Of a stretch of 64,000 nucleotides of DNA, positions 22,995 to 28,832 are shown in pieces. The translations under genes were made by a program, and so were the position numbers. The DNA lies in contig CBDCWP010000034.1 of assembly GCA_965223505.1 (NCBI GenBank), forward strand, positions 96,001 through 160,000, in the 5' to 3' direction. This DNA comes from Planctomycetota bacterium. Lineage in GTDB: Bacteria > Planctomycetota > PLA2 > JAEUHO01. Numbering within the stretch: the stretch's first letter is position 1; each line of letters begins with the position of its first letter. The notes under the pieces were generated by a model. It did not search any database. It worked only from the letters and a program-made list of their open reading frames with translations, and was not told where the DNA came from.

Positions 22995-23026
22995 CTCAGC
23001 GGCGCCTAAGTGCCGTGGCCTAGCGT
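22995..23026 (+). promoter_or_regulatory. Direct-repeat box CTCAG-N6-CTAAG plus -10-like TAGCGT
   Basis: Box 22995-23010; hexamer 23021-23026 lies 10 nt downstream and 6 nt before GTG 23033. Confidence 0.65.
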
Positions 23027-23032
23027 GCGAGC

Positions 23033-23757
23033 GTGAAAGCGTCTCTGGCCGCCCTCGCCGTGATCTCGATCGCAGCCGGCTGCGGCCTGGATCTCCCGCA
23101 ACCGCTCGTCGGCGACCTCGCCGAGCCGGCCTTCGATCCCGGCAACTTCAACGACCGCTCCGCGGAGATCCACCACCTCTACTACCCCTTCGTTCCGGGC
23201 TCGACCTACACCTATCGCGGCGAGACCGAAGGCGGCGCCGTGGAAGAGGTGGAGGTCAACGTCTCGCGCGCGACGCGCGACGTGCTCGGCGTGACCTGTC
23301 TCGTCGTGGTCGAGCGGGAGTTCGAGGACGGCGCGCTCGTAGAAGAGACGCACGACTGGTACGCCCAGGACCTCTTCGGAAACATCTGGTACTTCGGCGA
23401 GGACTCGACCGAGTACGAAACGGTGTCGTCACCGGCACCGGCGGCTCCTGGGAGGCCGGCCTCGACGGGGCCGAGCCCGGGATCCTGTTCAAGGCGCTCT
23501 CCGTCCCGCTCGACGAGTATCGGCAGGAGTACTACCCGGGCCGCGCGGAGGACATGGCCAGGGTCGTGGCGCTGAACGTGGCCGTCACGCTCGAGAACGG
23601 ACTCAGCTACCCCCAGTGCGTACAGACGCAGGAGTGGACGCCGCTCGAGCCCGGTGGGGACGAATACAAGTTCTACGCGCTCGGAATCGGCCTCGTGCGC
23701 GAGCAGCCGCTCGACGGCGGGCCCGGGCTCGAGCTGGTCGGGATTCGGTCGGATTGA
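23033..23757 (+). pseudogene. Lipoprotein gene with a single-base frameshift (paralog of 26896-27561); pseudogene or sequencing error
   Basis: Adding one A to the AAA at 23418-23420 gives continuous ...WYFGEDSTEYENGVVTGTGGSWEAGLDGAEPGILF...YRQEYYPGRAEDMARV...YKFYALGIGLVRE, collinear with the paralog. Confidence 0.8.
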
Positions 23758-23841
23758 GGGGATTCGTCGTGCGAGCCGGTCGTTTCGAACGCCTGTCAAC
23801 CTGCTGTTCGGGCCGTTTCGCGCGGGGGCGGCACGGCCGAA

Positions 23842-23873
23842 CCAAGGATTCCCTAAGATTTCGTCATGAGAAT
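23842..23873 (+). promoter_or_regulatory. Direct-repeat box CCAAG-N6-CTAAG plus -10-like GAGAAT upstream of the PepSY/two-component operon
   Basis: Box 23842-23857; hexamer 23868-23873 exactly 10 nt downstream. Confidence 0.68.
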
Positions 23874-23908
23874 CCCGGGGCCTCGGGGGCCGACGAAGGG
23901 AGCTGTCC

Positions 23909-24484
23909 GTGAGCTGTCGAATGATCGCATTGCTGGTTCCGGTCGCCGTCTGCGCGTTTGCCGCGGGCGCCTGGTGCGACACCGATGACGACGAGTCCGA
24001 GATGGAGATCGGGTTCTGTGAGGCGCCGAAGGCGGTGCAGCGGGCCGTGCGAAGCGTCGCGCACCACCGCGCCGTGACCGAGCTCGAGCGCGTGACGGAC
24101 GACCACGGCATCTACTTCGACGTCGAGTACCGGACGCGCGCCGGCGAGGGCTCCCTCGTGATCGCGCCGTCGGGCGAGATCATGGAGCACGAACGCGAGA
24201 TCGGCACCGACCGCCTACCTGCCGCCGTGCGTGCCGCCATCGCCAAGCGCATGCCCGGCGCGGTGATCACCGAGGCGCAGAGCGTCATGCAGCATTCGTA
24301 CGAGGTGCTCGTCACGGTCGGCGGCAAGCGCATCGAGATCGAGGCGTACGCCTCCGGCCACCTCGACGTCGAAGACGACGACGACGACGACGACGACGAT
24401 GACGATGACGACGACGATGACGATGACGATGACGACGATGAGGATGAGGACGACGACGACGACGATCACGACGACGACGACTAG
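23909..24484 (+). CDS. Secreted tandem PepSY-like protein with a poly-Asp C-terminal tail
   Basis: Signal peptide; two units (APKAVQRAV.../LPAAVRAAI...YEV); about 37 consecutive acidic residues with one His at the C-terminus. Confidence 0.78.
   Translation: MSCRMIALLVPVAVCAFAAGAWCDTDDDESEMEIGFCEAPKAVQRAVRSVAHHRAVTELERVTDDHGIYFDVEYRTRAGEGSLVIAPSGEIMEHEREIGTDRLPAAVRAAIAKRMPGAVITEAQSVMQHSYEVLVTVGGKRIEIEAYASGHLDVEDDDDDDDDDDDDDDDDDDDDDDEDEDDDDDDHDDDD
24371..24481 (+). repeat. GAC/GAT/GAG trinucleotide tract encoding poly-Asp
   Basis: Directly visible (gacgacgac...gatgac...), in frame with the PepSY gene. Confidence 0.9.
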
Positions 24485-24493
24485 GCACGACCG

Positions 24494-26638: not shown

Positions 26639-26803
26639 GCGCTGCTTGGTGAAATCCCGCTGCTGCGCCCGGCGATCCTCTTGCTGCGCCCGGCCCGAAC
26701 TCGGAACCTCGTCCTCGACGGGCACAGAGCCCGCCTGCGGCGAGAACCGCTCGTTCGGGCTCCGGCTCGCATCGGTCTCCCCGGGCTCGCGACGCGGCAA
26801 TTT

Positions 26804-26846
26804 CCAAGCAGTGCCTAAGGCGTTCCTAAGCGTTCCGATCAAGAAT
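26804..26846 (+). promoter_or_regulatory. Triple direct-repeat box CCAAG-N6-CTAAG-N6-CTAAG plus -10-like AAGAAT
   Basis: Half-sites at 26804, 26815 and 26826 (11-bp period); hexamer 26841-26846 exactly 10 nt downstream. Confidence 0.72.
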
Positions 26847-26895
26847 GCGCCTTGCTCGGGCGGGCGCCTTGGGTGGGGTGCGAGGAGTTGATGCC

Positions 26896-27561
26896 GTGAA
26901 GTCGTTGCTGTTGATCGCAGTCCTCGCTGCGGCCCCTCTGGTGGGTTGCGGCGCCGTTCCCACGGAGGTGCCGGGGCCCGAGTCGTTCACGGTCGGGATT
27001 CAGCATCCGTACCTGACCGTCACACCGGACACGGTGTGGATCTACGAGGGGCACGACGAAGGCGTGCCGCGCCGCGAAGAGGTGTTCGTTGCCGGGATGA
27101 TGGAGATTCTCGGTGTGCACTGCACCGGCATTCGTGAGCACGTGTTCGATGACGGCGTGCTCGTCGAGGTGACGACCGAGTGGCTCGCGCAGGACGTCGA
27201 CGGCCACGTCTGGAAGTTCGGCGAGGAGAGCTTCGAGTTCGACGGGGAGAGCTTCGTGCCGACGGCGGACTCGTGGCTCGGCAGCGAGGAGGCGTTGCCC
27301 TGGGTGATCCTGGCCGCCAGGCCTCAGGTCGGCGACGTCTACGCCGGCTACACGCCCGAAGGCGAAGACCAGATCCACGTCACGTCCATCGACGAGACCG
27401 CGGAGGTTCCGGCCGGCACGTTCGCCAACAGCGTGAAGATGGTGGAGAATCCCGACGACGAGGACGACTCGGACATCATTCTCTACAGCCCGAAGGTCGG
27501 AAAGGTCTCCGAGGAGAGCGCCGGCGGCAAGATCGTTCTCGTCTCCATCGAGCAGCGCTGA
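26896..27561 (+). CDS. Acidic beta-rich lipoprotein of unknown function
   Basis: GAGGAG RBS, lipobox LVGC, WLAQDVDGHVWKFGE, VPAGTF, YSPKVGKV; paralog of 23033-23757. Confidence 0.78.
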   Translation: MKSLLLIAVLAAAPLVGCGAVPTEVPGPESFTVGIQHPYLTVTPDTVWIYEGHDEGVPRREEVFVAGMMEILGVHCTGIREHVFDDGVLVEVTTEWLAQDVDGHVWKFGEESFEFDGESFVPTADSWLGSEEALPWVILAARPQVGDVYAGYTPEGEDQIHVTSIDETAEVPAGTFANSVKMVENPDDEDDSDIILYSPKVGKVSEESAGGKIVLVSIEQR

Positions 27562-27567
27562 GCAAGG

Positions 27568-28770
27568 TCACGGCGTCTTCGTCTTGCGCACGGTGACGTC
27601 GTCGATCACCGCGCCGTCGACGCGAATGGCGCGGATGCGCGCCGTCGCCGGCGTGATGTCGACCAGCGTAAAGTGGTGGGCCGCCTCGCCGAACGCGAGC
27701 CGGAAGTCGTCGGCAAGCGGATAGAGCGTGTTGCCGCCGCCGCCCGTAACGACGTAGATCGGCGCCGGAGGATCGAGGATCTCGGCCCCCTGCATCTCGA
27801 TGGGCACGCCGAACCGAATCGGGTGCGTGCGCTGGTAGTTGTGGTCGTGCCCGCTGAACATGAAGTCGACGCCCGCGTCCTGCAGGAATGGGACGACGTT
27901 GAGGATGAGCGGCGTGTGGTCCGCGTGCCGGCCGCGCGTGTACGGCGGCCGATGCGTGAACGTGATCGTCCACGGCGGCGCCGGCTCGGCGAGCTTGTTC
28001 CGCAGCCATCGAACCTGCGGCGCGTCGGGCGACTCGATGCCGAACTCCGCGTTGATCGAGATGAACCGCGCGCAGCCGCGGCGGAACTCGTAGTACTGCT
28101 CCGAACCGTCGACGTCGTTGCGCGGCAGCGGCAGTACCGACAACGTGGGCACGCCGGCGTCGGTGGCGACGTCGTGATTGCCGAGCGCGACGTAGCACGG
28201 GGTGTGGGTCATGAGGTTCGCGAACGGAATGAGCATGCGGGCGCGCACCTCCGTCGGAGATCCCGCCTTGTACGCGACGTCGCCGGTGAACAGCACCAGG
28301 TCGGGGTTGGCCGCCTCGATGCCGGCGACGTTGGCCATCTGCGGGAGGCACCCGCACCCCATGTCGCCGATCACGGCGAATCGCACCGGCGCACTCGGAT
28401 CGTCGGATGCCGTCTCGAATCGGTGCGTGCGCGATGAGGGCCGGCCTTCGATGACGAGCCGGTACTTGTAGACGGTCGAAGGAAGAAGCCCGGTGAGCTC
28501 GACCTCGTGCGTCGTACCGGCCGCCGGCGAAGCGATCCGGCGTAGCGTCCCGTCGGGGGCCTCGAGCTCGACTTCGCCGGGTCCGCGCTGCGAGAGCTCC
28601 CAATAGAGACGAACCTGTGTGGGCTGAACGTCCCCGAGGACCGGACCCGCGTCGATGCCGGCCTCGAAGGTAGGGAATGGGGCGCCGAGATTGGAGCTGC
28701 CGCCGCACGCCGGTAGGCAGGCCCCGACGAGCGATACGAGGAGGGACAGGACGATCGCATGTCGGGTCAT
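27568..28770 (-). CDS. Purple-acid-phosphatase-like metallophosphoesterase lipoprotein with an N-terminal FN3-like domain
   Basis: GDMG, TGDVAY, LGNHD, HRPPY, SGHDHNYQR, VTGGGG motifs. Confidence 0.9.
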   Translation of the reverse strand: MTRHAIVLSLLVSLVGACLPACGGSSNLGAPFPTFEAGIDAGPVLGDVQPTQVRLYWELSQRGPGEVELEAPDGTLRRIASPAAGTTHEVELTGLLPSTVYKYRLVIEGRPSSRTHRFETASDDPSAPVRFAVIGDMGCGCLPQMANVAGIEAANPDLVLFTGDVAYKAGSPTEVRARMLIPFANLMTHTPCYVALGNHDVATDAGVPTLSVLPLPRNDVDGSEQYYEFRRGCARFISINAEFGIESPDAPQVRWLRNKLAEPAPPWTITFTHRPPYTRGRHADHTPLILNVVPFLQDAGVDFMFSGHDHNYQRTHPIRFGVPIEMQGAEILDPPAPIYVVTGGGGNTLYPLADDFRLAFGEAAHHFTLVDITPATARIRAIRVDGAVIDDVTVRKTKTP

Positions 28771-28800
28771 GGCTGCTCCAAAGACCGCGCACCCGAAGAC

Positions 28801-28832
28801 ACCTTCCGTCCCCTCCCTTAGGCCCTGCTGAG
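28801..28832 (-). promoter_or_regulatory. Direct-repeat box CTCAG-N6-CTAAG (minus strand) plus -10-like GAAGGT upstream of the metallophosphoesterase
   Basis: Plus strand cttag 28817-28821 and ctgag 28828-28832; hexamer 28806-28801 is 10 nt downstream on the minus strand. Confidence 0.65.

Follow-up and report, generated by a model that had tools for sequence, protein, structure and literature searches.

The question raised by this locus is whether a short direct repeat that recurs upstream of several neighbouring genes marks the regulon of the two-component system encoded among them. The locus lies in a 64,000-nt stretch of DNA (positions 96001-160000 of contig C34, hereafter the window) from the genome of a Planctomycetota bacterium that is assembled into 44 contigs (5,154,780 bp, 67.4% GC). 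An initial annotation of the window had placed pairs of pentamers of the form C(T/C)(A/C)AG-N6-CTAAG at four sites around the genes for an OmpR-family response regulator and a sensor kinase, and had taken them to define a self-contained regulon. All four sites were located at the coordinates given there, with matching sequences, and the hexamers TAGCGT, GAGAAT, AAGAAT and GAAGGT begin exactly 10 nt past the last CTAAG in every case. (These sites, referred to here as boxes 1 to 4, precede the gene for lipoprotein 1, the genes for a PepSY-like protein, the regulator and the kinase, the gene for lipoprotein 2, and a phosphoesterase gene, respectively.) The most likely explanation, to which we assign a probability of roughly 0.8, is that the pentamer pairs are the operator of the adjacent OmpR-family regulator (24494-25159), which would control its own synthesis together with a small regulon through class-II activation. 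Three computed properties of the boxes bear on this explanation, namely their rarity, their promoter geometry, and the conservation of both box and geometry upstream of orthologous genes; binding by this particular regulator, activation rather than repression, and the nature of the signal are what we infer from the sequence.

With respect to rarity, we counted the strict dyad, CYMAG-N6-CTAAG, against a background of 100 dinucleotide-preserving shuffles of the window. The strict dyad occurs six times in the window, compared to an expectation of 0.09, and 0 of the 100 shuffles gave as many as six. Five of these six matches are accounted for by the four sites, and the remaining match, at 44905-44920 on the + strand, was overlooked in the initial annotation. 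The CTAAG pentamer, which had been judged by eye to be rare elsewhere in the window, is indeed scarce there (10 occurrences on both strands compared to 22 expected, with six of them within 23006-28821 and one at 44916). Genome-wide, CTAAG/CTTAG total 328 and there are eight strict dyads, six of which are in the window, one on contig C7, and one on contig C21, so that 5/8 fall within 5.8 kb around the two-component genes. Note that a relaxed dyad, defined as an 11-bp-period pair of C[ACT]AAG, CTCAG or [AG]TAAG pentamers, occurs 41 times in the 5.15-Mb genome, and that a genome-wide scan of relaxed dyads with spacers of 0-15 nt revealed no excess at a spacer of 6 (41 versus a range of 24-80). 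Thus, the enrichment of the dyad is local, not global, and the genome-wide count that had been proposed as a check bears out the clustering of the strict dyads at the locus but not an excess of the relaxed ones.

The promoter geometry was derived from an alignment of 38 sites in 18 genomes (four in the window, 34 in relatives; L022:16626 and the distal pair of each of two triples were left out). In columns that had not been used in site selection, C is present at -1 in 27/38 sites and at +10 in 31/38, C or G at +5 in 38/38, A at +27 in 31/38, and T at +31 in 30/38. The spacers and flanks of the 38 sites carry about 0-0.2 bits, and no -35-like hexamer is conserved across them. The informative columns therefore describe a half-site, cCTAAG, and a -10-like element, nAnnnT, exactly 10 nt downstream. 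When a position weight matrix (PWM) was built from the 34 relatives' sites alone, the four sites of the window ranked 1, 2, 3 and 5 of 10,306,744 genome positions. (Rank 4, at position 46164 of contig C8, is probably a chance match; it lies inside an SDR-like open reading frame on the opposite strand.) The view that these are OmpR-type direct repeats with an 11-bp period that end about 10 nt before a -10 element is, at the level of sequence, consistent with the five strict dyads in the cluster and with the 38 aligned sites.

This geometry also speaks to the direction of regulation. The regulator might own the boxes and yet act as a repressor, its binding over the -35 region blocking RNA polymerase until release when the signal ends. 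According to a 2026 study of BqsR, regulation is negative or mixed where the box overlaps a predicted -10/-35 element, as it does at feo (PMC13522522). However, no -35-like hexamer is conserved, the information being confined to the half-sites and the -10 positions, and a fixed distance of 10 nt to a weak -10 element is the architecture of an activator-dependent promoter. Moreover, cRACE (circular rapid amplification of cDNA ends) on three BqsR-activated genes placed the box over the -35 (PMC4358008). We regard repression as improbable.

Conservation was examined in loci that encode homologues of lipoprotein 2, which were found in 22/41 related genomes, the window's own included. The 19 surrounding loci were taken, of which 17 (L021-L037) belong to the window's family and order and two (L038 and L039) lie outside. 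The kinase gene adjoins the lipoprotein-family gene in 17/17 of the former loci, and the regulator is present, at 68-82% identity, in 15/17. Six related loci have adjacent genes of the lipoprotein-1 type, which encode one domain or a tandem of two or three, and a PepSY-like gene is adjacent in four (5/18 loci with the window counted); the phosphoesterase gene is adjacent to the circuit in 0/17. As the reading in the initial annotation requires, the boxes are conserved upstream of orthologues: the intergenic region between the kinase and lipoprotein-2 genes contains an 11-bp-period dyad in 16/17 loci, and 35 of the 36 relaxed dyads present in the 243,156 bp of the 17 loci are intergenic and border regulator/PepSY, lipoprotein-1-type or lipoprotein-2 genes, the exception being L022:16626. 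By comparison, a control set of 744,378 bp around 80 unrelated OmpR-type regulators (39-56% identical to the window's regulator, among the matches listed) contained 30 scattered relaxed dyads. Orthologous operon promoters have near-identical boxes, such as CTAAG-GAAATC-CTAAG-ATT. The presence of box 2 upstream of the regulator's own operon, and its retention at these orthologous promoters, implies an autoregulatory promoter for the PepSY-like, regulator and kinase genes, in agreement with what had been proposed.

The same comparison bears on the idea that another OmpR-family regulator, encoded elsewhere, binds the boxes and has the adjacent pair as just one of its targets. Regulator homologues are numerous in the genome (80 first-look candidates), and strict or relaxed dyads are also found on other contigs. 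Nevertheless, in 17 loci from two families the boxes accompany the regulator-kinase pair, and regulators with at least 68% identity are confined to those same two families among 301 sampled genomes of the phylum (3/10 genomes of the window's family and 5/5 of its sister family). Furthermore, L038 and L039, which are lipoprotein-family loci outside both families, have neither the regulator nor dyads. (Four further genomes of the 301 have regulator matches at 51-56% identity.) An unlinked regulator is, in our estimation, very improbable. That the repeats are non-regulatory, whether clustered by chance or left behind by the ends of mobile elements (an insertion at 26639-26814 resembles a miniature inverted-repeat transposable element, MITE), is scarcely credible, for although a MITE terminal repeat contributes the distal pentamer of box 3 and the MITE ends (TTTCGAAACAGAGCCTAG) are loosely dyad-like, the MITE touches one box only, its other copies form no strict dyads, half-sites and -10 elements are kept across relatives in which the spacers differ, chance would give 0.09 dyads per window, and the relatives' matrix ranks the four sites at the top.

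We favour, then, a self-controlling circuit that would operate as follows. The kinase would phosphorylate the regulator, which would bind as a head-to-tail dimer to two cCTAAG half-sites set 11 bp apart; these half-sites would stand in for a -35 element, with a weak nAnnnT -10 following at a distance of 10 nt, and RNA polymerase would be recruited by class-II activation, as with PhoB, PmrA and BqsR. In this way the circuit would turn on its own operon (the PepSY-like protein, the regulator and the kinase) and a set of exported proteins that comprises two paralogous beta-barrel lipoproteins, an FN3-like secreted protein and, in the window genome, the phosphoesterase. As to the signal, our best guess is a cation cue at the envelope, which the PepSY-like protein with its poly-Asp tail would help to read. 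Such a circuit yields a testable operator, cCTAAG-N5-cCTAAG positioned 10 nt upstream of nAnnnT, together with a minimal regulon in an uncultured lineage, and it would place under one signal three unstudied exported families (the YmcC/DUF3108-like lipoproteins, the two-domain FN3-like protein and the poly-Asp PepSY-like protein).

Several observations weigh against this explanation. The genome encodes many other OmpR-family regulators, and the assignment of the boxes to the adjacent one rests on conserved adjacency. A search for RNA runs covering 22900-29000 listed none. The related genomes are not independent of one another, so the cross-genome counts overstate the support, and the relaxed half-site definition was picked after the sites had been seen. 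Not all orthologous positions carry a good box: lipoprotein 2 of L025 is preceded only by a degenerate CGAAG-N6-CAAAG, and the regulator of L026 only by ATCAG-GAAATC-GTAAG. (The box upstream of a three-domain lipoprotein gene in L024, CTAAG-N6-TTAAG, is likewise degenerate.) Lipoprotein 1 is frameshifted and the -10-like element of box 1 abuts its start codon, so that this promoter may serve a dying gene. The proposal that the phosphoesterase is an output of the regulon stands as far as box 4, a putative promoter of that gene, ranks third with the relatives' matrix, but finds no support in conservation, an upstream dyad being present in 0/15 homologous loci within the order; note that the identity to these homologues does not exceed 40%, and that they may be paralogues. 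Finally, the dyad at 44905 is absent from 19/19 orthologous loci of the 45122-47968 gene, and a -10-like hexamer is missing at the 10-nt distance.

The features of the locus are collected in Table 1.

Table 1. Boxes, genes and repeat elements of the locus, in window coordinates (PWM, matrix built from the relatives' sites).
Feature	Position	Strand	Evidence
Box 1, CTCAG-N6-CTAAG (22995-23010), -10-like TAGCGT (23021-23026)	22995..23026	+	PWM 18.6 bits, rank 5
Lipoprotein 1 gene, lipobox signal, paralogue of lipoprotein 2, frame shift near 23420	23033..23758	+	Three-frame translation, tblastn
Box 2, CCAAG-N6-CTAAG (23842-23857), -10-like GAGAAT (23868-23873)	23842..23873	+	PWM 23.9 bits, rank 1
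Secreted PepSY-like protein, two weak PepSY_like repeats, C-terminal poly-Asp tail	23909..24484	+	Pfam PF11396
OmpR-family response regulator, receiver and winged-helix Trans_reg_C	24494..25159	+	PF00072 3.7e-29, PF00486 8.6e-21
Sensor histidine kinase, 2CSK_N, HAMP, HisKA and HATPase_c, acidic periplasmic domain of ~150 aa	25163..26638	+	Pfam
Relic left part of ancestral triple box, CTAAG-CAGTGC-CTAG, severed by insertion	26624..26638	+	Sequence comparison
MITE-like repeat, 176 bp, flanks CTAG (26635-26638) and CTAA (26815-26818)	26639..26814		blastn against genome, ends and flanks, excess contig depth at 26572-26775
Box 3, CCAAG (26804-26808)-N6-CTAAG (26815-26819)-N6-CTAAG (26826-26830), -10-like AAGAAT (26841-26846)	26804..26846	+	PWM 23.6 bits, rank 2
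Lipoprotein 2, acidic, no Pfam model for family	26896..27561	+	Predicted structure, profile searches
Lipoprotein-type purple-acid-phosphatase-like metallophosphoesterase	27568..28770	-	Pfam Metallophos 5.8e-20; Pur_ac_phosph_N and Metallophos_C weak
Box 4, CTCAG-N6-CTAAG (28832-28817), -10-like GAAGGT (28806-28801)	28801..28832	-	PWM 21.8 bits, rank 3
Sixth strict dyad, CCAAG-N6-CTAAG, divergent intergenic region, 217 nt upstream of 948-aa beta-propeller lipoprotein gene	44905..44920	+	PWM 14.4 bits, rank 16

The intergenic gaps between the PepSY-like, regulator and kinase genes are only 9 and 3 nt, which argues that the three form one operon. Box 3 is a putative promoter of the lipoprotein 2 gene. 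In the case of lipoprotein 1, only 6 nt lie between the end of the -10-like hexamer of box 1 and the GTG start (in orthologues 47-68 nt separate the box from the start codon), and the mRNA would therefore have little or no leader ahead of its GUG. The frameshifted sequence of this gene (…GAGTACGAAACGG…, 23410-23430) is present gap-free in a contig of a second sample from the same study. Because two samples thus yield the same gap-free frameshift, lipoprotein 1 is more likely to be a real pseudogene than the product of an assembly slip, a sequencing or assembly error being the alternative.

How does this circuit relate to those that have been described? Judged by sequence, the box would be of the PmrA/BqsR type, and the locus would work like the PmrA, BqsR and PepSY-kinase-regulator systems. 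A close parallel is BqsRS/CarRS of Pseudomonas aeruginosa (bqsPQRST), which likewise combines an OmpR-family regulator with a tandem repeat of 5 bp, a 6-bp spacer and a TAAG core, and has PepSY genes upstream. The BqsR box named in the initial annotation, TTAAG-N6-TTAAG, is in print; it overlaps the -35 of each of three promoters that were mapped, and the bqs operon regulates itself (PMC4358008). PepSY proteins are encoded upstream of BqsRS (PMC12714742). Among solved structures, CarR/BqsR is the second closest to the DNA-binding domain of the window's regulator, the TRRGxGY hairpin being common to both, and an Arg of the terminal hairpin is an anchor residue of BqsR (PMC13522522). There are also differences. 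The first base of the half-site is T in the BqsR box but C here (TTAAG was seen in one related site, in L024, and in the outgroup L040); the kinase has a 2CSK_N-type periplasmic domain of ~150 aa without the RExxE motif of BqsS; the PepSY-like protein matches the PepSY model weakly, ends in poly-Asp, and occurs in 5/18 loci only; and the regulon is different and small.

PmrAB/BasRS of Enterobacteria, whose half-sites CTTAAT and CCTAAG lie 5 bp apart (PMC3973317), shares with the proposed circuit the 11-bp period and head-to-tail binding, and its second half-site, CCTAAG, is the consensus half-site here. By contrast, the regulator scores 195.2 bits against the PmrA equivalog model NF007928 (cut-off 330) and the kinase 108 against PmrB (cut-off 314), and, unlike with PmrAB, no lipid A modification genes are present in the cluster. 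PepSY-kinase-regulator modules, bqsPQRS among them, are described as widespread in several phyla, and DbfQ of Vibrio cholerae as acting directly on its kinase (PMC12714742). The locus resembles DbfQRS in that the PepSY-like protein, which has a signal peptide, is encoded in one operon ahead of the regulator and the kinase, in that order; it differs in that its PepSY match falls short of the Pfam cut-off or just reaches it. The heavy-metal systems CusRS/CopRS/CzcRS provide the best-scoring NCBIfam models for both proteins (TIGR01387 for the regulator, 206.2 bits with a cut-off of 279.2; TIGR01386 for the kinase, 181.5 bits with a cut-off of 292.55) and have the same 2CSK_N sensor architecture, but these scores are below the cut-offs, the sensor has no conserved His, Met or Cys, and the box is a direct repeat. 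The box of CusR and CopR is palindrome-like. Assignment of the pair to the PmrA equivalogs, to the heavy-metal subfamily or to the BqsS type was thus rejected, in the first two cases on the cut-offs and in the third on RExxE. If our explanation is correct, the PmrA/BqsR half-site type extends far beyond Proteobacteria; the unstudied features here are the output families and the PepSY-like protein with its poly-Asp tail, and no new regulatory principle is at work.

Turning to the proteins themselves, lipoprotein 2 is predicted to form a beta-barrel (predicted local distance difference test score, pLDDT, of 91.2) whose nearest structures are the putative lipoproteins 4fvs and 3fzx with a YmcC-like fold (TM about 0.5). 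The predicted fold is thus YmcC/DUF3108/LolA-like, a fold without a known metal function. The family comprises 41 clusters at E <=1e-5, its own cluster counted, all of which are unnamed and without a Pfam model, and the only Atlas lead was DUF3108_like, in 13% of one cluster's members. (The lipoprotein domain also occurs in two or three tandem copies, in proteins of 445-688 aa, in L021, L022, L024, L039 and at C44:242474-244540 of the window genome.) The PepSY_like model PF11396 matches the window's protein at an E value of 0.015, and the best orthologue, at 28.3 bits, is at the cut-off, a weak match. All five PepSY-like proteins (5/5) end in a near-pure Asp tail of 25-55 residues. The periplasmic domain of the kinase is acidic (isoelectric point of 4.45 for residues 31-180), and in an alignment of 16 kinases E62, Y65, P71, R75 and F82 of this domain are invariant and (E/T/Q)R is kept at PEFER; the alignment contains no conserved RExxE, ExxE, His, Cys or Met. 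A profile of the kinase matched solved structures in its cytoplasmic domains only (HprS, QseC and others), and none for the sensor domain.

These properties make the cation, phosphate or mineralisation role proposed for the circuit in the initial annotation a matter of speculation, because the kinase sensor lacks conserved motifs or residues of the kinds just listed and the lipoprotein fold lacks a known metal function. The only pointers to a cation are the conserved poly-Asp tail and the acidic sensor domain, and a hard-cation cue is no more than plausible. One could go further and suppose that the poly-Asp PepSY-like protein is a periplasmic, cation-loaded co-sensor, in which the Asp tail binds Ca2+, Fe or a lanthanide and the PepSY-like body sets the activity of the acidic sensor, such that the circuit deploys outputs that change the envelope; we find this rather unlikely. 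Were it true, the beta-barrel lipoproteins, the FN3-like protein and the phosphoesterase would alter the binding or precipitation of metal or phosphate at the envelope, and the locus would represent an undescribed cation-sensing variant of the PepSY-kinase-regulator module in an uncultured lineage. Among the literature matches listed there was no paper joining PepSY with poly-Asp, and nothing relevant was found on PepSY-linked two-component systems in Planctomycetota.

Contrary to what had been claimed, the regulon is not self-contained: one conserved member is encoded on contig C7, and contig C44 probably holds another. On C7, the strict dyad at C7:17265 precedes by 93 nt a gene for a secreted protein of 242 aa that is predicted to consist of two FN3-like domains (pLDDT 84.8). 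Of 10 related loci with homologues of this protein, four (L174, L175, L177 and L181) have an upstream dyad with TAGnnT at 10 nt and five have no dyad, and in L176 the homologue is encoded directly downstream of a lipoprotein-2 orthologue. On this evidence the FN3-like secreted protein would be a conserved regulon member. (Two more dyads are found beside the FN3-like gene of L174, within 250-1380 on G027:C40, and one of them is 20 nt upstream of a 273-aa open reading frame that by eye is methyltransferase-like (S-adenosylmethionine-dependent) and is a possible extra member in that genome.) On contig C44, a gene for a three-domain lipoprotein paralogue is preceded by a degenerate 11-bp-phased triple (CTAAT, CAAAG, CTCAG) that ends ~60 nt before the start, which makes this paralogue a probable member. 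The strict dyad at C21:309125 is followed by a hairpin-like sequence and lies beside a ScpA-like gene; no target gene could be assigned to it. As to the dyad at 44905, its flanking genes (42798-47968) encode, besides the beta-propeller lipoprotein, a divergently encoded secreted protein of 692 aa that is HEAT-repeat-like and Pro-rich at its N-terminus; the lipoprotein itself has near-full-length matches at 57-67% identity in 15 relatives.

A more distant locus, L040, whose record is titled as an uncultured gammaproteobacterial metagenome-assembled genome, encodes the closest regulator outside the order among the matches listed (56% identical). Here the regulator adjoins a purple-acid-phosphatase-like gene, and dyads of the TTAAG-N6-TTAAG type are present upstream of both, one with TAGTCT at 10 nt. 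L040 looks like a BqsR-box-type regulon with a phosphoesterase in another lineage, and this neighbour, although a single case, makes the link of the window's phosphoesterase to the circuit less likely to be accidental. (The gene order across 2230-7300 of L040 is outer-membrane beta-barrel, purple-acid-phosphatase-like protein, TPR protein, response regulator, histidine kinase, receiver-HATPase protein, and the stretch contains several dyads of this type.)

Box 3 has a history of its own. The initial annotation described it as a triple, and three in-phase pentamers are present, but the distal one, CCAAG, belongs to the terminal repeat of the 176-bp MITE-like insertion. At least 10 near-full copies of this element (~180 bp) exist in the genome, bounded by the inverted repeats TTTCGAAACAGAGCCTAG at their termini and by a target duplication, CTAG/CTAA; they lie on contigs C5, C10, C11, C18, C26, C38, C39, C40 and others. 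The copy in box 3 alone has altered ends (right end CCAAGCAGTGCC; both ends CCAAGCAG(T/C)GCC). Sequence comparison suggests that the MITE entered the CTAA of the middle half-site in an older triple, CTAAG-CAGTGC-CTAAG-GCGTTC-CTAAG, that began within the last kinase codons, and that the target duplication rebuilt the middle half-site; the right end of the MITE now provides the distal pentamer, in phase with the rest of box 3. With its last five codons and its stop codon, the kinase gene runs into the remnant of the former lipoprotein-2 box and into the target duplication. The kinase has a C-terminal extension of 12 aa (window 26596-26638) that is missing from 15 orthologues. CTAR is rare in the genome (5,283 sites on both strands), and for this reason the regulator's boxes may be favoured targets of the MITE.

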